NCBI GenBank assembly: GCA_905331485.1
Contig: CAJNYT010000794.1
Coordinates: 113,928 to 128,814, forward strand
Reading direction: 5' to 3'
Source of the DNA: Rotaria socialis
Taxonomy: Eukaryota
Length of the DNA: 14,887 nt
In this document: in pieces, positions 1 to 14,887 of the stretch
Layout of the letters: each line of letters begins with the position of its first letter
Numbering within the stretch: the first letter of the stretch is position 1
Translations under genes and position numbers: made by a program
Notes under the pieces: model-generated
The model's input: only the letters and a program-made list of their open reading frames with translations
Told to the model about the DNA's origin: nothing
The model's database searches: none

Positions 1-760
1 GGGTGTTGTCCGGAGACAATTTCAAGAGCCCGATATTTTTCCTACAACTATTACTAGCTGCAGCTCTGGACAGAAGGCCGGCCTGACTCAGAGTTCCTTC
101 TGCTTAATTACTTAAGCTTCCCATGCATTCTGACTAACCACATACTATCCATGAGGATATTTTTATGTATGTCATATGTAATCAGCGTGCTATCGGATGG
201 GTGATCCGAGACAAAGCAGCCGTTAGTAACTTGTCCAAGGTTATTCTATGGATGATGGCGCCGAGGTTTGAACACACTATCTTGTGGATATGTGCCGAAC
301 ATCTTAACCATTCAGTCATAGCGGCTTCTTGAAGAAGGAACTGTGGACCATGTTCGATACATCAAGTAGATCCTTTCAGTAGCTCTCGAATGTGGTACGC
401 AGTGTTTGGGAGTGACTGGACGTTCCAACAAGATGGCGCACGATCACACATTCATCATCTCACTCAAGGATGGTGTCGAAAACATTTTCCACCATTTCCC
501 GATCAATATGAATGGCCCCCAAATAGTCCGGATTTGAATTCTCTGGACTACTGTATCTGGACTGACTTGCCGAAGTTATCAAGTGGGTGAAGGTGTTGTC
601 GAAAAGTCCTTAATTGAAGAACTAAAACGTGCTACAAAATAAATTTGACTTGAAGTCGTCTTTGAACGCTGTGATTCTTGAACTAATCGCTGGCATCGAA
701 TTTCTAAAAATAATGGAAACTATGTTGATTAGTCAATAAATATCAGTTTTGTCAAGAACT
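1..760 (+). mobile_element. Degenerate Tc1/mariner-superfamily DNA transposon fragment. The 5' end is truncated by the window edge. The 3' TIR was not identified.
   Basis: Translation shows recognisable transposase motifs in order: IHEDIFMYVICNQRAIGW (147-200, cf. mariner TGDEKWIxYDN); KVILWMMAP (cf. KTMLCVWWD); WTFQQDGARSH...EWPPNSPDLNSLDYCIW (390-590, the third-Asp region of the DDE/D domain, cf. FLHDNAPSH...YSPDLAPSDY); and RWHRISKNNGNYVD* (688-732, cf. mariner C-terminus RWEKCVASDGKYFE*). The reading frame is broken by in-frame stops (135-137, 330-332, 588-590) and by a frameshift after 588. Confidence 0.75.
138..732 (+). pseudogene. mariner-like transposase pseudogene (multiple stops and a frameshift)
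   Basis: Same evidence as above. Frame 0 is open from 138 to 329, stops at TGA 330-332, resumes to 590, then homology continues in frame +1 to the stop at 730-732. Confidence 0.7.
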
Positions 761-1403: not shown

Positions 1404-1663
1404 AGTTGAATTGCATTCATCTATGTAACCTTTCTTCTTGTAGATCTCGTCTACCAAAACAAGTTTTATATCTTATGTTTTTATCTTCTTGAAACTAGGC
1501 AAGGTGAGTTGACATCTGATCATCCAATATAGTGAATGTAATAATGCATTTTCTTATCAAAAACTTCAATATTAGAAATTTGTGTTCAATATTAACTGAC
1601 ATTCATCTTGCATATGGACAAAAATTCGATCCACTGCATGGGTGTGATCAGAAACAAGGCCAG

Positions 1664-1716
1664 CACCCGCACTCAAGCCCATACACCCGCACCCTACTCC
1701 ACCCACAACCACATCA
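1664..1716 (+). repeat. Degenerate C-strand telomere-like block (CACCCG/CACCCT/CACCCA variants)
   Basis: cacccgcactcaagcccatacacccgcaccctactccacccacaaccaca. It is decayed relative to the perfect units nearby. Confidence 0.6.
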
Positions 1717-2445
1717 AACACTTAATCTAATTTACAAGTTATTTATTGTTTATAAAAAAAAGTTGTAGATTTTCGTTGTTTTCAAAATCTTTGATAAACT
1801 CAAATTCGTGAATCAGCTCTACTAACTCAGATAGTAGCAACATATTTTGTGCCACCATTTCATGAATATCTCTAAATGAACTACTCTGTCTATAGTGATT
1901 GATCAACTCGTTGTAGTCCATTCAATTTATATGTCCTGCTCATGCTGAACTGACGAGTATTCGTTTTCATATGATCATTCAGCATCAACATTCTGTTCTC
2001 CCACTTTTATTTTTTTCAAAAAATGATTCATAATCGTAAGCTGATATATTCGTTATGTAGAGATTTACATCGATTGAAAATAGAGAATAAGAGAGATCAG
2101 GCTTTGGAATATTTCTTTTCAGTTTTTCGATGATTTTCAGCAAAAAGTATAATGAGCATTACTTTGAGTACACGAAAACTACAACGAGTAACTTTAATGC
2201 TTATGTCCGCAAATGACATTCGTTTAATGCACATTTTCAATAGGGGTTGCATCAATAGCTTTTCTAGTTCTATGCTTTGCAGGATAATCTTTCGGATACA
2301 AGATTGTTAATGATTAACAGCAGGGTCCTCTACAAATTACAAAAGTTTTATGTGAAAGAAAAGAAGTTTTAAGTAATGATCATCTCTTTAATAAATCGAA
2401 AATTTACAAGAATTTCATCGTAAAAAAGTAAAATTAAAGCAGTGT

Positions 2446-3210
2446 TCACAGATGAGACATCGCTGCTTGTCCACCGATCCCGGCGAGCCAACATGTAGTG
2501 TTTACGATGTATCGTGCTGTACCGGCGTCATCCCAATTTATATATAATTTTGTGAAACCAGAATCGAAGGATAAACGTCCTTCAGTTGATGTTGCTGGTG
2601 GGTCAAATACAGCAATATTAGGATTGCCATCGGTCGATGTCGCCAAAACGGTAAGTGCAGAACAACTGGCAGTGGTTGAATAAACAGGTTGACAAATAGT
2701 GTGTCCTTCATATAGATTTGTTATTCCAGTAAATATATCATGCTGACCAAAATGTCCAGTTTCTAAATATCCTTTTTCTTTGTATGTGAGCGTTAGTTGT
2801 GCACCGTAACAACCCGTTAGAGTGATGCCAAACCTTTTATTGAGAAAGTTGGACGCATGAGTTATATATGGTACATTGTCTGCGAACAAAAAAATTGCTC
2901 CGCCTGATGCATGAAACTTTATTAAAGCTACATCGAATGTCGGGTCTTGAATAGAAGATGAACTGATAACCCATACTATCCGATAAAGATTTGTGCTTAA
3001 TTCAGATAAAAATTCTGTTTCAGATTTCACATGTTTCACTTGAAAACCTTTAACCATTAAAGCATCAATCGGTTTCTGCATGGCCACATCCGAAAATGCA
3101 CTATCAGAGTAAAACTGTCCAATTAAGACGCAATATCGATTAAAAGCACCGTCTCGACCCAGGTCATAATGTGTTCCGACAGGATTTCCATGTTTATCAT
3201 ACGAATGCAC
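2446..3210 (-). CDS. Single long ORF (254 codons) encoding a protein of unknown function, possibly caspase-fold (peptidase C14/CHAT-like). The N-terminus is unresolved. The ORF's first codon is GTG with an in-frame TAG immediately upstream, so there is probably an upstream exon or the start is an internal ATG.
   Basis: The ORF is far longer than background in AT-rich DNA. Weak motif resemblance to caspase/metacaspase: CVLIGQFY...DVAMQ...ALMVKGFQV (cf. ALIIGINY...NDA...FL..GF), then FHASGG, then TLTGCYGAQ about 35 aa later (cf. SGHG ... DSCHSG). The His is not in the canonical position, so this is tentative. Confidence 0.55.
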   Translation of the reverse strand: MHSYDKHGNPVGTHYDLGRDGAFNRYCVLIGQFYSDSAFSDVAMQKPIDALMVKGFQVKHVKSETEFLSELSTNLYRIVWVISSSSIQDPTFDVALIKFHASGGAIFLFADNVPYITHASNFLNKRFGITLTGCYGAQLTLTYKEKGYLETGHFGQHDIFTGITNLYEGHTICQPVYSTTASCSALTVLATSTDGNPNIAVFDPPATSTEGRLSFDSGFTKLYINWDDAGTARYIVNTTCWLAGIGGQAAMSHL

Positions 3211-5120
3211 ACCAATAATTTCGCTTTGACCAGCAACAGGGTTATAAATATCTGTAGTTGTGCTTTTCTCCTGTGACTAGACCAAAAAAAAACGATGCTT
3301 AGCATTATAGAGTGTAATGTAAGTTGTTATCTCATTATCTTAAAAACTGTTCGCTTAAAGATACTGAGAACAGAACTAAAAAATATTTTCTAGTTGACAC
3401 TATGTGACCTTACTCTTCCGTCGTTTCATTTCATTTTTTACATCAGAAATATTAGTCCTGTAAACGTTGTTCTCTCAAAACTGACACCTAAATTGAAACT
3501 CATCGTACTGTATCTCTAACTGCAAATTTACATAGAAAGTCAGCGCTGAGACAAATAAAGTACAACATGATTTCAATCTTATTCTTGCTCAGCGAACATT
3601 TTTACTTGTTTGATGGTGGATCAGTTCGGAATTTCTCTTACTTACAGTCCAATATTTCCCATTCAATCCTGTATAAACACGTTGTTTTCGCTGTTTTACA
3701 GAGCCATTGCTTGCTTTTGACCGATGATATTTCTAAAATAATAGATTGTATTCTATTGTCTATTCATTTGCATATAATAATTTGTTTACTCTTTTTCTGA
3801 TGTTATTTTTCTTCGATTGAGTTTTCTGGGTAGTGGATTTGCATAATCGTTTTCCTTTTTTCGTTGATGAATTTTCAATATGTTCATGAACCTGAAAACA
3901 AAGGGAGTGATAGAGAAAGTAGTTATTTCTTCTTTGTTTTTTGTTTATTTCAAAGGCATACATCATTAATTTCTTTTGAAGAAGATTTTGTGCTTCGCAG
4001 GCTTCTAGAGTAATTTGACGAGAGTTTTGTTGTCATAGTTACTCTGAAGTATAACAGAATCATGTTCATTAATATTTAATTTGAAATACCAATTACGTAC
4101 CAGACTTACTGTGGTTAGTCAATGATTTTGTTTTTCTTTTCCAGATAAAGAAGCAATGAGCAGAACACATATTTATATACCCACGAAGTGCAGAGCAGAA
4201 TAATAAAAAAATGTGATTTCACAAGTGTGGTGCAATACCAATGTCGTCACGTTTTATAAAGCTACTGCTGGTTAACTGCAAGTTCTCGCTCTAAGTCAGG
4301 TTATCTAAGTGTCTCTGCCGATCAAATTGTTTTTCATAAGATTTTTCTCTTTTTATCAACAGAGAACTTTTGACGAATGTCATTACGCGTATTAATTCTT
4401 GTGATTCATCGGATACATCAAAAGTGTGAGTGTTACGGTATTCCCATGTTGCCATTGTACCTGACATGTTAGCGCAATCATTTTGGATTTTAAAATGTGA
4501 TACATGAACCTTATGTTGTTACTATAGACGCAAAAACTCTTTTATTCCATATCCCTTTGCAATCCTTGAATATACTTTTTAGTAGTCAAAAAAGACGTTA
4601 ATAAGAAAGCTGTTGATATGTTTTATGAGATTTCAAGAACATAAAACCATTAATCTTTCATTGAAGCCGTCTCTAATAACCTGCGATGTTTCTCGAGTTC
4701 GTGTATCACTGTCTGAATGTATGATTTCTTGACCGGACTGAGTAGGGCGGTCAACTTGCGTGAGCCATTGCTTGATTTTCTCATACATTGAGGGCATTGT
4801 TTAATTCTCTATTAGTAATCCTTACAGCTGAATCATTACAAGTATTACCTAACAGTTGAATGCTACTTGCAATGTTTTGCTGAAACATAATTAGTTATAT
4901 AAGACGCTTCTAGTGAATATTAGCTCATTTTTAATATTCATACTCGTGCACATTCATAAAAATAATCACCAATATCTTAGCCCCCTGAATCCCGAGAACT
5001 CTTGCTTACTATTCGAAGCTAAAGAAAGTTTTAAAAAAGACTTTCTTTGGTGTTGTCGCTCTGAATCAGCTGTATATATGTTCTGTATTTTATTCACCTA
5101 TGTCGTATAGATTTGCACTA

Positions 5121-5136
5121 GGGTGTGGGTGTGGGT
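5121..5136 (+). repeat. Telomere-like (GGGTGT)n G-strand, 2.5 units
   Basis: gggtgtgggtgtgggt. Confidence 0.85.
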
Positions 5137-5160
5137 TCGATAATAAATATTCTACTGATT

Positions 5161-5173
5161 CACACCCACAGCC
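5161..5173 (+). repeat. Short C-strand telomere-like block, inverted relative to 5121-5136
   Basis: cacacccacagcc, 24 bp downstream of the G-strand block. Confidence 0.6.
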
Positions 5174-5367
5174 ATTTCAAGGTGCCAGCTTATTCACACT
5201 ATTGCCCTGTGAATTGGATTCTTGTATTACATTATTAGAAATAATCTTGAAAGTTCTTGAAGATATAATTTGTTTTGAACTTTCTTTCGAGAATAATTCA
5301 GAACCATTAAGCCACCTGATGAGACCCTTTAGCTACGTCAAAATCTAGAACATGGCAGCTTATTCAT

Positions 5368-5422
5368 GCCCACGCGTACGCCCACGCCCACGCTTACACC
5401 CACACTCACACCCATACACCCC
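5368..5422 (+). repeat. Degenerate C-strand telomere-like block (CACGCC/CACACC/CATACACCC variants)
   Basis: gcccacgcgtacgcccacgcccacgcttacacccacactcacacccatacacccc. Confidence 0.6.
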
Positions 5423-5503
5423 GTGTCATATAGATATGATGAGATTATATACGATCAAAAGCGAATAATAAAGCACAAGTACAACAAGATTGAAGAATTC
5501 AAA

Positions 5504-6768
5504 TCACTTTGATAGGTATGATTTTGTCTTGAGAATGGCGATCTCGCTCTTTTTCTTCTTCGACACCCATTCCACATACTTCTTGGCAATAAATGTTTCA
5601 TTAAATTCTTTCTTATAATTAGTTGATGGCAGAACATGGAGAATAAAGCCGAGAACTTGTGGGGCATATGAAAGTAGATAAGTAGCAAGTAATGTATGAC
5701 GTTGCCAATCACTAAGTGGTGTACATGCAAAACTAAATGTAAGAATGATTTGAGGCAGAACAGAAATAACAGCAATCGTTGGTGTGACATAGAGTTCCTT
5801 CTGAGTCTTAAATTGTTTCTTTAACACTTCACTAAATGTTACTCTTTGTCCAACCGTTTTTGCTCGACTACGAGCAACTAGAACAATCAAAAAAGTGATG
5901 CAAGTGATTTGGATAAAAAATGGAACGATATAGTGAATGAGAGTAGAAGTTCGATTGTAATTTGATGCCAGGGCGGTGTTAAAGTTTGTCACGTAGACGA
6001 ATGAACCGGTGGGAGTGTACTGAATGATAACGGAATGAATTATTTCAGGCACATGCATAAGAAAGAGGACAATCGACGTTGCAATACTCATTCCGATAGA
6101 TAGACGAGGATTTTTTAGAGATGATGAAGTTGGGATAAGGATTATCAGAAGGCGATCAACAGTAACCCAACTTGTTAGCCAGTAGGTCGATCGTGTGAAT
6201 ACGGGAAGCAAGAAAGAAATAGCTCTACATGTCCCCAGATCAGAGACTTCGATAGTAATTTGAATAAATTTGAAAAACAAAAAGAACAAAGCAGTCTGAT
6301 TGAGACCAGTGAGAATGAACAAAAAGTTGCCCACGCCAAATTTTCGAGGCGTAGGTCGTTTAAATGTGATGAATGAACAGAAATTGTTAAAGAATCCGAT
6401 GATGAAGAGTAGACAAGCTATAGAAGCATAGATGATCTTCACTTGTTTTGAATAATCAACCAGAAGTAAATCGAGAGTGAAGCCAAATGCGTGCAAACTA
6501 AATTCACATCGATGTCCTTGATGACAAGAAGGACAAAGGCAAATGAAGTCGTTTAAATCTTTTGGATCACCTTGAAGACATTTTCCTCCAGAGAGACACT
6601 TGTCACAATGGTCAAGTTGAGTATCGTGTATAAAACAATTGGCACCATAATGATCTGGTTGGCAAATACATATATAGTTTTCGTCATAAAAACAGATATG
6701 TTGAGTGTCGTTTCGACAGATATTATGATATTTAAAAATCGCTGGAACGGACTCATCGATTCGTCGCA
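5504..6768 (-). CDS. Exon 3 (terminal) of the LDLa/EGF/7TM receptor gene. It encodes two EGF-like modules, a seven-helix rhodopsin-like transmembrane domain, a cytoplasmic tail and the stop codon.
   Basis: Open frame. Seven hydrophobic segments: TM1 IIYASIACLLFIIGFFNNF (GN-type Asn); TM3 begins with Cys and ends WVTVDRL (DRY-like); TM5 has Pro; ICL3 is basic. The acceptor tttttag|TG joins in phase with exon 2 (A + TG = Met codon). EGF-like C-x-C-x(n)-C-x-C-x-x-G spacing in FYDENYICICQPDHYGANC and CLQGD...FICLCPSCHQGHRC. Confidence 0.8.
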
Positions 6769-6815
6769 CTAAAAATCGACATCAGATGAATATTTTTATC
6801 TATCTGAAAACTCAC
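6769..6815 (-). other. Intron 2 (47 nt), GTGAGT...TTTTTAG
   Basis: Minus-strand donor GAAA|GTGAGTTTTC and acceptor GATTTTTAG|TG. Splicing keeps the 1102-aa and 421-aa ORFs in one frame. The stop (TAA) 21 nt into the intron explains why the six-frame ORF ends there. Confidence 0.75.
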
Positions 6816-9800
6816 TTTCGGACAACAGTGACAAGGCGTGCGGACAATTCTGTGGAGATGAGGTGATGTTGATCATTCGTTGAACCTGACAATAGATGAT
6901 GAAATATTGCGGATCTGATAAATCTTCATAGATTTTGAGAAATCCGAATTCGGGTGCATAAACACTAGAATGGTAGTAGTTAATCATCGATGGCAAGCCA
7001 TAATAGGCCTTCTGATGTTGGATAGAAAGTGGCAAATCAGAAGCATCACCGCTGTAAAGTTGTACAATGGTCGCACGAGCAGATACTGCCCTTGTTATAT
7101 TCAAAATAACGCGAACAAATGCCATCTCATTTTCACATTGATTTCCATAGAATTGCTGTGAGCAGTTGCACATGTAGGCTTGTTCGCCACTTCGATCATA
7201 ATTAGGAAGACAAGTTCCATTGTTCAAACATGGACTCGAATCGCAATAGTCGTATTTAAAATTGCAATGTGGTCCAAAGTGGCCAAGTGCACATATGCAG
7301 TAAGGATTGTTTCTTTTGACCTGTAGATCATAATGATCTGGTCGACAGAATGCTTTGACTGAACAGTAAGTTCCACAACGATACTCGTACATGCTACAAT
7401 TCGTCCCATAATAACCACTTTTGCAAGAACAATAGTAAGAGTTGTTTTGATTGAAAACTGGCATGCAAGTGGAATTCTCATTGCATCTGTTTTGCCAGCA
7501 AGCATCATGTGTGGTATTTTCCAACCAAGATGGAAATCTCAATACGATCGCCAGACGGAATGCTGGTAGATAATCGAAATAAATTGGGTAGTGCCAAGAG
7601 CCAATTTCTTTGATACTGTTTTCATTTTCAAGGGAGAAAACATCAAAATGAACAGAATATGGATGATTATTGATCACATCAGTTCGATTGAAATAGCGCC
7701 GTTGCTTGTGTACAAGCATCTGTGCAGAACGAGAATACACAAGATAAAATTTATGCTTGATTATTTTGACTCTTTCGAATGTTGGAATAATAGTGAATTC
7801 ATGATGATCGATTATTCTATTATTGAAAAGAAAATTCGCTTTGATTTTGAGGGTCACTTTCGACATTGTCGTCAGCAAGGTGTTCTGATCGAGGTGTGCA
7901 ATAATACTGATTCGATCGCTAAAGAATTCACACCAACGACCATAATAAGCGGGTGGACACAGACATCGAGTTTCATTCATTTGAAGAACAGCAATACCTC
8001 GATTACATTGATACGAATGTACTTTGAAAAAGGAGTCATTTTGAAGGTTAATACTTGATTTTGGCACCTGCTGTTGATTGACATCTACCATACTCTCTGG
8101 TGGGTACGTTATCAGATAGATATTATCAATGTGATTATCTAGGATTTGTCTTTTGCCAAAGCGATAGCTTCTTTGATCGTTGAGAGAACCAGACGGACAC
8201 CAATACTCATCTTCTCCATCCTCACAATCTACTATTCCATCACATCGTGCATTCTTCTTGCATCGATCGTCTCCGTGACAAATGGCATCTTTCTTATTGG
8301 AGCATGATCCGTCTTTATCCCGATACTTTGAGCAAAGAATCTCAGTGCAATTTAACGTTGAGCAAAATTCTACGTAGCTCCTATGTTCACTTCCGCAACG
8401 AAAATGGAAGCCCCACATATTTGTATTATCGGTTTTCGCTGTGAATGTATTCTTTTCGTCGTGGGCATTGTAGCAATCTTCCACACCATCGCCAATCTGA
8501 GTAAGATTGATACATGGAGTATTTGACTGAATATCCAATGGGTTTGATACTCGAGATAGATAACAACCGAATTCAAAAGATGTATTGCAGATTTTCCAAA
8601 ATGGTGGTTTGGAGTATCGTTCTCGACATTTTTCAAGCTGAGAAGGTAAATTTGTGAGATGAGCGTTGTGAATCGTCCATGGTTGATTAAGAACGATGGC
8701 TTCTTCATCGCTTGCGTCTGCACAGTCCCATTCACCATCGCATACCCAATCGAGTAAAATACACTGTCCTGTTCGACATCGATATCGATCATGCTCGCAT
8801 ACCCAATGTTGGCACGAAGAAGACAATTCGTCAATGTGATTGTCCAAATTCCAAAAAGTATCACAATACGATCGAAAAGCGATGAGTTTCTTTGATTCTT
8901 GTCGTTGAGTACTGACGAGGGAAGCGTTGTTGCTTGAATTCTTTGCAGATGATTGCTGAATGTATGCTTTCAAATGGTGGCAATGAGTGGTTCGTGTTTT
9001 CGAACATAAAAGCTGTATTCGAAGAAGACCACCAGTGCCATGCCAATTTTTATCATAGCTGTTCGAACAACTAGGAACGTCTCTACCCAAGTGGCTCAGT
9101 GGCAGACATGCGTAATCATCATCAAAACACTGAAAACGATGTCGTCCTGCATTTCCCGTGCAATAATTCTTGTCAAGGATCATAATTTCATCGCTTGCAT
9201 CAAGGCAGTCGAATGTGCCATCATGAATTCGATATTGTGATATGCATTCACCGGCATAAGGACATATTTCAAGATTAACAGCATATGGGCGACCATTGAA
9301 TGTTAGTGAGTCATTCCAACAGAACTTGTCATTTTGAATTGGTGACAAAAAATCTAGATTCCCATAAATAGGATCAGAAAAGTGACAAAGCTTGTGATGA
9401 ATCAATGGATATGAAATTAGGGCAACATAGAACGGCTCCTCGAATGAGTATTTGGTCTGAAAAAAATACCCTCGACATTTTATGCCGCCAGAAAGTAAGA
9501 AAATCTGAAAACTTGGATTTTCCATAAACTGACTGTAGTTGTAGTAGATCAAAACATTTGGATTGATTAATCCTGCTGGTGGATAGAGAATGAGGTAGTT
9601 CTGTGATGAACACACACTCATCATCATTGGTGTGCAATTCGAATGATTGCATGGACAATCATGCTCCAAACCTTTCGACAAAGCACATCGAAATAGATAC
9701 TGGCATTTTTCTTTGTTGGTTAGGTTTGACGCAATAATCAGATTCCATGGAGGATATCTAGGATCATCGTAGTCTTTATCTGGCCAACATAGTCCACTCT

Positions 9801-10058
9801 CGAGTGTCCAAGCAGGTGGGTTTGAACTCGCTTCACACATATAGTTCCGATTGCGCTTGGTGAAACAGTCATTTTTCGCTGATTCAAATCGATTAAAATC
9901 CATTCGACTGCTCCATTGAACACATTGTCCGTCACCGCATGAGTACCACATCCTACTACATGTATGTTCGTCACATTCTATTGCGTTCGGATGAAATTGG
10001 CACGAGTCTCCACCATCGGAAAAATATTCATCGCTCCAATCCATACAATCGTTGTCAC
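6816..10058 (-). CDS. Exon 2 of the LDLa/EGF/7TM receptor gene, a 3.24-kb extracellular region with several LDL-receptor class A modules, a large Cys-rich region and two EGF-like modules.
   Basis: Uninterrupted 1102-codon frame. LDLa signatures CMDWSDE, DGTFDCLDASDE, CDGEWDCADASDEE, CDGIVDCEDGEDEYWC. EGF-like CQNRCNENSTCMPV...YYCSCKSGYYGTNC and CDSSPCLNNGTCLP...YMCNCSQQFYGNQC. Many N-x-S/T sites. Confidence 0.85.
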
Positions 10059-10108
10059 CTATAAAAACAATGAATGTAATAAGTTCTTTCAGAATTAACA
10101 CCACTCAC
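10059..10108 (-). other. Intron 1 (50 nt), GTGAGT...TTTTATAG
   Basis: Minus-strand donor TTGGATG|GTGAGTGG and acceptor GTTTTTATAG|GTGACAACG. Splicing gives WLDG-DNDCMDWSDE, which completes an LDLa module across the junction. Confidence 0.75.
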
Positions 10109-10805
10109 CATCAAGCCAAAATTCCTCCGCAATGCACATGCCATTTGTGCATCGGAATTCATCATACTCACATTCATTGAACTCTAATTTGTCACAATTT
10201 TCTTCATCGGTACCATTCGAACACCGCTGAAAACTGTCGCAAATTTCACGCCAATCCAGACAGAGAGGACTCGAAAGACAAGATAGTGTCTCATAGCAGA
10301 GAATCTTTCCGTAGCGTTGAGTATTCCATTCATCGCCGTTTTCCTTTTGTTCAAACTGAGCGTTGATTGCCTCGCTGAAGAATTTTGCCTCGTGTGTCAA
10401 TTTATACTCACAATATTTGCCGAATGTTCCCGAGTTTGTGCAGTTACATACAAATCTATCATCATTATCGTCAATTAACGATCGATTGTAGAAGGCCCTG
10501 GCGTACAAGTCGACCATCTCGACACTTGAACTCCAGTTGAGGATCTCGCTTGGATGAATTTTTTGATCGAGTAGATCGCGAAAGTATTTCTTCTGTCCTT
10601 GATTGTCACACTCACTCCTATTTCGAACAAGTGTTTGACTCCCACCTGGGCGTCGGCAATAAGAAATTTCTTCTCCGTCATTATAAGTGTAGTAGACACA
10701 ATCGAATTTCTCAAATGCCTCTCCATTTTCAGTATTGTAAAGTAGAACTCGACCATATGTGTCGCTGAAGATCAAGAGAAAAGTCGCTACGAAAGACGTC
10801 AACAT
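10109..10805 (-). CDS. Exon 1 of the LDLa/EGF/7TM receptor gene. It holds the ATG start, an N-terminal signal peptide and the first LDLa modules.
   Basis: ATG at 10803-10805 followed by hydrophobic MLTSFVATFLLIFSDTYG (signal-peptide-like). CLDWREICDSFQRCSNGTDEENC is a canonical LDLa module. The second module (EFNECEYDEFRCTNGMCIAEEFWLDG) is completed by exon 2. Confidence 0.75.
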
Positions 10806-11277
10806 CTCCGAACTATCCCGCGCTCACAATCCACATCAATAGATAATCATCAACACTTTATCTACCTGTGAAGAAAGAAAAGCTAACAAAGAACAATCCC
10901 TTTCAAATGATTTTTTTATTCCATGATATTTTTCGATATTATCATATTTCATGGGATGAGCACGTATGAAACAACAGTGATGAATAAATAGTCAATAAAT
11001 GATGACGTGCATGAAAAAAAGCCTTGTTTCAAACAAGCACACAAATAATGCATGATAATGAAAGACGGATGAATCACAAGAGAACATTTCCAGGTGTCGG
11101 AGCGCTTTTCAGCCGGGGTTTTGCGCATCTTGTAGCTCATAGTGAGCTGTGTCTATGGGAAAAAAGGTTCGGGTTTCTGGTATGTTTCTGGAGAAATATC
11201 GAGTTTTCGTTGAATTTTCTATATAGTATCCCATCTTTTTAGTAAAGCTATAGTTTTGAATTTTGACTCGAAACAGT

Positions 11278-11521
11278 ACCCACATAACGATCCCAGCTGG
11301 ACTAACTTGTATAACAAAATTCAGAAGTTTTGGACAAAGTCCCTCCTAGATATCGAACTATCACGGCACAGACTCTTTTTCATAGATCGAATGTATACTA
11401 TGCGTACTTTGAAAATTTCATATCTCGGAGAGGCTTTGTCCAAAACATCTGAATTTTGTTATCCAAGCTAGTCCAGCTGGGATCGTTAGGGTGTGGGTGT
11501 GGGTGTGGGTGTGAGGGTGTG
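11278..11521. mobile_element. Palindromic foldback or MITE-like element. The inverted-repeat arms are 58 bp (11285-11342) and 57 bp (11432-11488), about 93% identical, around an ~89-bp central segment. It is capped on both outer ends by telomere-like hexamers (acccaca on the left, (gggtgt)5 on the right).
   Basis: Left arm taacgatcccagctggactaacttgtataacaaaattcagaagttttggacaaagtcc. Reverse complement of right arm taacgatcccagctggactagcttggataacaaaattcagatgttttggacaaagcc. The flanks acccaca|taacg and cgtta|gggtgtggg extend the palindrome into the telomeric units. Confidence 0.7.
11489..11521 (+). repeat. Telomere-like (GGGTGT)n G-strand, about 5 units
   Basis: gggtgtgggtgtgggtgtgggtgtgagggtgtg. 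Confidence 0.9.
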
Positions 11522-11544
11522 AAACTCAGAATGAAAACAAACAT

Positions 11545-11562
11545 CCCATACCCACACCCCCC
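11545..11562 (+). repeat. Short C-strand telomere-like block, inverted relative to 11489-11521
   Basis: cccatacccacacccccc, 23 bp downstream of the G-strand block. Confidence 0.6.
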
Positions 11563-14676: not shown

Positions 14677-14775
14677 GGGGTCGCAACGGGCCGCCCGACC
14701 CGGTGGACCGACCCGGACCGGGCGGGCCACGTATTTCTTCGGTCCACCCGGACCGGCTTGTTTTATTTTTTTTTC
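14677..14775 (+). other. Isolated GC-rich segment of about 82 bp (roughly 75% GC) with nested inverted repeats, followed directly by a T-run (ttttattttttttt). It could be a small structured RNA (Pol III-type T-run terminator) or a transposable-element terminus.
   Basis: ggccgcccg...cgggcgggcc form an imperfect outer stem. Inner cccggtggaccg pairs with cggtccacccgg. cggtcc-accc-ggaccg is a 6-bp stem with a 4-nt loop immediately before the T-run. The surrounding DNA is about 28% GC. Confidence 0.35.
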
Positions 14776-14887
14776 TTATGAATCGAACATAACTGGTGCG
14801 TCAGCATAAATGGCGGTCTCAATATTTCTTCAATATTCCTTTCAGCTTTCATAGTTTCGGGCTGACTTTTATACCAAAAGATTCAGC

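Follow-up and report, generated by a model that had tools for sequence, protein, structure and literature searches.

Bdelloid rotifers survive massive chromosome breakage and acquire foreign genes, and the way in which they stabilise and rejoin broken ends is a matter of continuing study. A familiar outcome of breakage is an inverted duplication with terminal deletion that a new telomere heals, as in fold-back inversion, in the first step of the breakage-fusion-bridge cycle, and in the hairpin-primed palindromes of yeast. The Tetrahymena rDNA minichromosome is a palindromic telomere-capped molecule, and the ciliate transposons TBE1 and Tec carry telomere-repeat termini.

The bdelloid telomere repeat is TGTGGG (PMC7943196, PMC8494291), and short telomeric stretches are already known in bdelloid subtelomeric DNA (PMC2861651). 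Bdelloid telomeres also contain Athena and Terminon, which are endonuclease-deficient Penelope-like retroelements (PMC6431247, PMC8557442); in the model for these elements the tracts lie in one orientation, with a hammerhead ribozyme beside (ACACCC)n (PMC6431247). Deletion breakpoints of A. vaga carry telomeric repeats together with Athena fragments (PMC13564844), and double-strand-break repair sites of vertebrates contain interstitial repeats inserted by telomerase (PMC8537989).

Here, we describe a palindrome joined to telomere repeats in a stretch of 14,887 nt of Rotaria socialis DNA (the window). The palindrome and its surroundings are organised as follows, in window coordinates:

5504-10805, minus strand: gene of the LDLa/EGF/multi-pass membrane family, identified by ORF and protein matches
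11270-11276, plus strand: GAAACAG, which with GAAACTCAG at 11521-11529 forms a weak candidate direct repeat around the entire capped unit, possibly due to chance
11278-11284, plus strand: ACCCACA, a C-strand telomeric heptamer that abuts the left arm and mirrors TGTGGGT of the right tract with a 3-nt offset
11285-11363, no strand: left arm, 79 nt, beginning TAACGATCCCAGCTGGACTA (repeat search, arm comparison)
11364-11409, no strand: asymmetric centre, 46 nt (repeat search, arm comparison)
11410-11488, no strand: right arm, 79 nt, ending ...TAGTCCAGCTGGGATCGTTA (repeat search, arm comparison)
11489-11521, plus strand: G-strand telomeric tract (GGGTGT)4-GAGGGTGTG, 33 nt, joined directly to the arm end at the junction A|GGGTGT
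11522-11544, no strand: unique spacer of 23 nt between the convergent telomeric tracts
11545-11562, plus strand: C-strand telomeric tract CCCATACCCACACCCCCC, which faces 11489-11521 head-to-head and beyond which the next segment begins

The palindrome, noticed initially by reading the sequence, is borne out by a repeat search of the window, which returns one outstanding inverted repeat at the locus. Its arms (11285-11363 and 11410-11488) are 79 nt each, 87% complementary and 46 nt apart, giving a core of 204 bp (11285-11488); the initial annotation was correct in describing inverted arms, and its 58-bp arms and ~90-bp loop give way to these lengths. Ungapped comparison of the arms places mismatches at arm positions 21, 26, 42, 56, 58, 63, 70, 71, 74 and 76, with no indels, and the ten differences are divided equally between transitions and transversions (five each). 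Five fall in the first 58 nt (91% identity) and six in the first 69 nt (~91%), and the outermost 20 nt of the arms are identical. No residual symmetry was seen in the 46-nt centre (11364-11409) when the arms were compared. A stable hairpin, a property to which attention had been drawn at the outset, is strongly predicted: folding of 11270-11530 as single-stranded DNA gives -72.7 kcal/mol, relative to -25.0 +/- 3.8 for shuffled sequences (z = -12.6; 0 of 200 shuffles as stable).

The palindrome runs into telomeric units on both sides, as the initial annotation had reported, and the two sides are very different in extent. The right arm end (...GGGATCGTTA, or in short ...CGTTA) passes straight into the 33-nt tract (GGGTGT)4GAGGGTGTG (11489-11521), and on the left there is a single heptamer, ACCCACA (11278-84), and nothing more that is telomeric. 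The telomeric phase differs by 3 nt, such that the reverse complement of the left side reads CGTTA|TGTGGGT and the right side CGTTA|GGGTGTGGGT. The heptamer is unlikely to have arisen by chance, because isolated telomeric 7-mers are rare, with only four others in the 14.9-kb window; we estimate the chance of a correctly oriented telomeric 7-mer within +/-3 nt of an arm end at ~0.15%.

The best named matches of the window genes are in Rotaria and Adineta. A yeast subtelomere, which the TG-rich repeats might suggest, is ruled out because the ORFs match bdelloid proteins. The protein of ORF 2446-3210 is 93% identical to that of Rotaria magnacalcarata, and window positions 1405-4979 share 91-93% nucleotide identity with five R. 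magnacalcarata contigs from different assemblies; none of the proteins searched is an exact match for a window ORF. The product of the LDLa gene is of the LDL-receptor-class-A/EGF type and has a tail that spans the membrane several times (multi-pass), and its protein relatives are all bdelloid (Adineta, Rotaria and many unnamed metagenome proteins). A block surrounding this gene (5453-11068) is 76% identical in nucleotides to two paralogous or orthologous contigs, and there is nothing in common outside of the block. The palindrome lies ~470 nt upstream of the LDLa gene ATG and ~210 nt past the end of homology. No empty site orthologous to it was found among the nearest relatives of the LDLa gene that we compared (loci L003, L004, L097, L099 and L102; 66-76% nucleotide identity), all of which lose homology at ~11000-11068. 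Near the left end of the window, ORF 390-590 on the plus strand resembles the catalytic domain of Tc1/mariner transposases (Sleeping Beauty, E = 0.0014; no Pfam match), and appears to be the decayed remnant of a DNA transposon.

Telomeric sequence is abundant in the window, with 17 telomere-repeat 12-mers where 0.02 would be expected, and it is arranged in at least five junctions, including the palindrome. In addition to the features listed above, these include:

1256-1403: compound junction of G19 (1256-74), a 50-nt spacer, C9 (1325-33), TTGA, G17 (1338-54), an 18-nt spacer and C31 (1373-1403)
1640-1720: old, degenerate convergent pair, with GGGTGTG (1640-46), a 17-nt spacer and a C-rich tract to ~1720, common to R. 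magnacalcarata
5121-5173: convergent pair, with G16 (5121-36), a spacer of 24-25 nt and C13 CACACCCACAGCC (5161-73)
5368-5422, plus strand: degenerate C-strand telomeric tract, ending ~30 nt before the LDLa homology block begins at 5453

These tracts are composed of the telomere repeat of the species, and they mark rearrangement breakpoints and segment borders. Homology with R. magnacalcarata starts at the first base past the (ACACCC)5A tract at 1373-1403 (1405), where the window reads ...ACACCCA-A-GTTGAATTGCATTC and R. magnacalcarata reads ...GATTTTTCT-GTTGAATTGCATTC. Because orthology begins exactly at the tract end, this neighbour of the palindrome, read on the opposite strand, is a telomere that was added de novo at a break specific to the lineage. 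Both species have the degenerate pair at 1640-1720, which is accordingly older. The LDLa block (5453-11068) is likewise flanked by tracts, ~30 nt from its left edge and ~210 nt from its right edge. A second kind of junction is found at 4979/4980, where R. magnacalcarata orthology stops with no telomeric tract, and 141 nt of unrelated sequence (4980-5120) precede G16. A 70-nt indel between the window (1639-1642) and R. magnacalcarata (L091 12465-12538) lies next to the old telomeric pair, and the deletion in the window creates the sequence GCATG|GGTGTG.

Within the compound junction, C9-TTGA-G17 (1325-1354; CACCCACAC-TTGA-GGGTGTGGGTG) forms a mini-palindrome, in which a short C tract and the G tract beside it are mirror images on either side of 4 nt. 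This unit can never have been a free fragment, which suggests that snap-back copying occurs at these junctions. The spacers have no likeness to each other or to nearby sequence, and the best match of any of them, an 11-mer (TGAAAACAAAC) at 1236-1246, is probably due to chance. Telomerase-RNA-derived flanks of the type described in vertebrates (PMC8537989) are ruled out as the source of the spacers, which are unrelated in sequence, and the segments 1404-1655 and 5174-5364 are ruled out as truncated retroelement 3' ends, having no mutual similarity.

The tracts are organised as convergent pairs, in the form (GGGTGT)n, a unique spacer of 13-67 nt, and (ACACCC)m, and this is almost the sole arrangement in the Rotaria loci compared. 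When successive tract pairs are pooled over non-redundant loci (the window, L091, L097, L099 and L102; L003 and L004 have no tracts), 13 of the 25 are G-to-C, ten are C-to-G, two are C-to-C and none is G-to-G. All but one of the G-to-C pairs (12 of 13) are spaced 13-67 nt apart, and the C-to-G pairs are separated by 4-6805 nt. The convergent pairs are located as follows:

Window: 1256-1403, 1640-1720, 5121-5173, 11489-11562
L091: 7222-7266
L097: 9643-9749, 15915-15961, 16374-16421, 17787-17873, 17927-17966
L099: 5-182, 6988-7158

This convergent polarity is that expected from the fusion of two telomerase-extended ends. Between the pairs are units that we refer to as 'C-body-G', with bodies of 4, 53, 412 and 600 nt and up to 6.8 kb, and the palindrome forms the terminal part of one such unit. 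Telomeric pairs likewise bracket LDLa paralogues of R. magnacalcarata (L097, L102) and of R. socialis (L099, L100), at distances of a few hundred bases (family copies at window 5453-11068, L097 10001-15206, L099 1278-6160 and L102 1839-2300), and no telomeric tracts are present at the Adineta-like metagenome paralogues L003 and L004. The bracketing suggests that copies of the LDLa family have been dispersed as telomere-bounded pieces.

The tracts also show a preferred junction. Of 29 tracts, 14 start with GGG on the body side, and in ten of these an A stands immediately ahead of the tract (12 of 14 when an extended G run is passed over and the base in front of it is taken), a preference that may reflect the alignment of rotifer telomerase on the broken end. 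The right palindrome junction, CGTTA|GGG, is of this majority form; the left junction, A|TGTGGGT, and the C9 tract are not. Junctions of a similar telomeric kind are present in at least four independent R. magnacalcarata assemblies. The telomere 24-mer is present in 86 IMG/VR contigs of mixed origin, nearly all of them with a single orientation; L010 alone is mixed, and none is window-like. In the literature searched, which did not extend to the primary bdelloid telomere papers, we found no description of a strict convergent-pair rule, of 'C-body-G' units, or of a telomere-capped palindrome. At the start of the R. socialis contig L099 (1-132), a variant telomeric array with an 8-nt period, (GGGTGTGT)n, precedes the canonical repeats.

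We favour, with a probability of roughly 0.55, the interpretation that the palindrome is a non-mobile repair scar without function, in which a broken end was duplicated in inverted orientation, by fold-back or through a hairpin, and was healed by telomerase. A healed end with inverted duplication was one of two readings offered by the initial annotation, and it is strengthened by the identity of the repeat as that of bdelloid telomeres, by the neighbouring tract at an orthology breakpoint, and by the majority form (A|GGGTGT) of the right junction; the other, a MITE or foldback element with telomeric caps, did not gain support. The fold-back event is suggested by the anatomy of the palindrome, which has inverted arms with a short asymmetric spacer and a telomere repeat that begins directly at the arm end (11488/11489). 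Snap-back copying seems to recur at telomeric junctions, because, just as the left heptamer mirrors the right tract, the very short C9 tract (1325-1333) is a mirror image of the G tract on the other side of TTGA.

The proposed events begin with a DNA end terminating ...GGGATCGTTA (also given as ...GATCGTTA), which would have been duplicated in inverted orientation either through snap-back priming of the resected 3' end on itself or through post-replication fusion of sister ends; either route would leave an asymmetric centre. Telomerase would have capped the end or ends with GGGTGT repeats, and the short capped end would have been joined head-to-head, via the 23-nt filler, to another capped end (11545-11562), thereby coming to lie inside a chromosome. 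The arms would then have drifted to ~9-13% divergence. The order of duplication and capping could vary: the right arm plus tract may be the copy, or the left arm may be the copy and the copied ACCCACA may have seeded a new telomere, or a free hairpin-derived dimer may have been capped at both ends. These three sub-variants differ mainly in how the 3-nt phase difference arises, and their separation requires an outgroup. The duplication is probably older than the split from R. magnacalcarata, provided that the arms began as identical copies, because the arms differ by more (9-13%) than the window does from R. magnacalcarata over the orthologous block (~8%); we estimate that such an age accords with the one irregularity seen in the 33-nt tract.

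Several features fit this repair scar poorly. The 3-nt difference between the junctions requires either an extra indel, where the 79-nt arms have none, or independent capping in an atypical phase, and the 13-67 nt fillers of the convergent pairs lack an explanation. Terminal repeats of a transposon would equally fit arms that are identical over the outer 20 nt and more diverged further in; under uniform decay, outer ends this clean are expected an estimated ~16% of the time. We consider it unlikely, if well worth weighing, that the palindrome is a non-autonomous DNA transposon of the MITE/foldback type, ~204 bp long with 79-nt terminal inverted repeats and a possible TA duplication, which either landed in a C/G telomeric junction that was already there or was excised and then capped by telomerase. 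Its small size, AT-rich arms with terminal inverted repeats, perfectly conserved outer 20 nt and a core with only chance ORFs are all MITE-like, a TA dinucleotide is present at both palindrome ends, the window contains a Tc1/mariner-type transposase remnant (ORF 390-590, E = 0.0014), and a bare C-x-G junction of the kind that might serve as target exists at 1325-1354. The palindrome termini, however, are unlike the transposase remnant, a special target would be needed to account for the inverted telomere repeats on the flanks, and the TA is self-complementary and may belong to the inverted repeat. The target-site duplications that the initial annotation proposed to look for did not materialise in unambiguous form, TAA and TTA not being a direct repeat and the GAAAC(..)AG around the capped unit being weak. 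No second copy of the palindrome was found in the window or in 178 kb of bdelloid loci. An arm 20-mer and an inner-arm 27-mer each had no match in IMG/VR, an arm 21-mer had none in bacterial and archaeal genomes, and an arm 18-mer had two matches of 18-19 nt in JGI metagenomes (which include many bdelloid contigs), both in contigs of 55-60% GC and attributable to chance; six-frame translation of the core returned nothing at E <= 10 among 5.8 billion proteins. The absence of a further copy disfavours a MITE only weakly, because the assembly of the source genome lies outside the sets searched.

The phase difference would need no indel if both ends had been capped independently, as on a free, very small palindromic linear DNA replicated from a hairpin-ended fragment and later captured between other fragments, and the C-left/G-right polarity is that of the other 'C-body-G' units, with bodies from 4 nt to 6.8 kb. 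We regard such a molecule as distinctly doubtful: the left cap is just 7 nt and starts TGTGGGT instead of with the usual A|GGG, neither a G tract nor a filler separates it from the segment to its left, and the 4-nt 'body' at 1334-1337 implies that not every C-x-G unit was once a free fragment. The great stability of the predicted hairpin, and its location upstream of a gene start ~470 nt away, could be taken to indicate a small-RNA precursor, a structured RNA gene or a cis-regulatory cruciform acting on the LDLa gene. This is highly improbable, given that there is no credible Rfam match (the sole match over the palindrome, at 11307-11464, scores 18.8 bits to a Streptococcus sRNA model with a gathering score of 72), that the arm mismatches show neither a strand-consistent G-U bias nor RNA-type compensation, and that paralogue conservation ends at 11068, short of the palindrome; from its sequence, we see no sign of function and suppose that there is none. 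An Rfam scan by E-value for structured RNAs and hammerhead ribozymes yielded hairpin-shaped microRNA look-alikes on telomere-repeat stems and the sub-threshold sRNA match, and both candidates were rejected. Inverted chimeras are also known from displacement amplification and from long-read libraries, but an artefact of assembly or whole-genome amplification is barely credible here because the arms are not identical: they differ at 10 of 79 positions about an asymmetric centre, whereas artefactual chimeras are identical copies, and like telomeric junctions recur in the independent R. magnacalcarata assemblies noted above.

If the palindrome is a healed fold-back, its closest counterparts are the healed inverted duplications, with which it shares inverted arms, a short unique spacer and telomere repeats directly on the end of the inverted copy, and in which the starting point is a broken end and not a transposase. 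The Rotaria palindrome differs in having arms of 79 nt rather than of kilobases to megabases, and in carrying a telomeric heptamer on its other side as well and having later been internalised head-to-head. The Tetrahymena rDNA minichromosome and the TBE1/Tec transposons are alike in shape, as palindromic or inverted-repeat-ended DNA with outward telomere repeats at both ends; the initial annotation knew of no described element with this terminal structure, which the TBE1/Tec termini in fact provide. These ciliate DNAs, however, are kilobase-sized, carry genes, and are made by programmed processes or by a transposase, whereas the Rotaria palindrome is 204 bp, non-coding, chromosomal and apparently single-copy among the sets searched; we found no substantial ORF for a transposase in the 204-bp core and no copies of the kind that a multicopy element would leave. 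MITEs and Foldback elements are similarly small, lack coding sequence, and share with the palindrome long terminal inverted repeats and, possibly, a flanking TA, but for the palindrome no copy family or clear target-site duplication was found, and its flanks are inverted telomere repeats.

The tracts themselves resemble the telomerase tracts of vertebrates (PMC8537989) and the neotelomere scars of A. vaga (PMC13564844), in that the species' own repeat is found at sites of breakage or repair, and alignment with an orthologous locus places the start of the tract right at the break. In vertebrates the inserted tracts have a single orientation and may be flanked by sequence derived from telomerase RNA, whereas the Rotaria tracts are convergent pairs with unrelated fillers of 13-67 nt; and unlike the vertebrate insertions, the flanks of the Rotaria tracts are not contiguous in the sister species. 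With Athena and Terminon the locus shares the host group and a subtelomere-like setting; those elements have short (ACACCC)n, telomere-capped 5' truncations, and host genes between repeats. The locus departs from them in the alternating orientation of its tracts, and in a window with no reverse transcriptase and no hammerhead ribozyme at E <= 1 in the Rfam scan.

Alone, the palindrome is a curiosity, the fossil of one repair event, and the architecture surrounding it matters more. We raise the tentative possibility that pieces of Rotaria DNA, from a few hundred bases to the size of a gene and with the hairpin-derived 204-bp palindrome as one of them, are routinely capped by telomerase at both ends and re-ligated head-to-head via short fillers, yielding arrays of 'C-body-G' units with convergent telomere-repeat pairs between them. 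If so, Rotaria would have a distinct pathway of fragment healing and stitching, by which subtelomere-like regions are built and members of gene families such as the LDLa/EGF receptors are dispersed, and which could take in foreign DNA; one of its hairpin intermediates would be directly fossilised in the palindrome. Comparison of the window with R. magnacalcarata offers cases, at base-pair resolution, of de novo telomere addition at lineage-specific breaks, together with a strict convergent-pair arrangement of tracts and a putative fold-back product at one such end. Should the pattern prove to be genome-wide, it would provide a sequence signature with which past events of breakage, healing and fusion could be counted and dated in any bdelloid assembly.

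Other features of the window lie toward its ends. Amid AT-rich DNA, the segment at 14680-14760 is GC-rich; it has an 11-nt direct repeat as well as inverted repeats nested within one another (GGGCCGCCCGACCCGG / CCGGACCGGGCGGGCC), and may represent the terminus of a transposon. Positions 806-846 and 14806-14845, near opposite ends of the window, form a 41-nt inverted match (83% identity, E = 3.6e-4). Window positions 1-6 are GGGTGT, and these are possibly the tail of another telomeric tract cut by the window edge.
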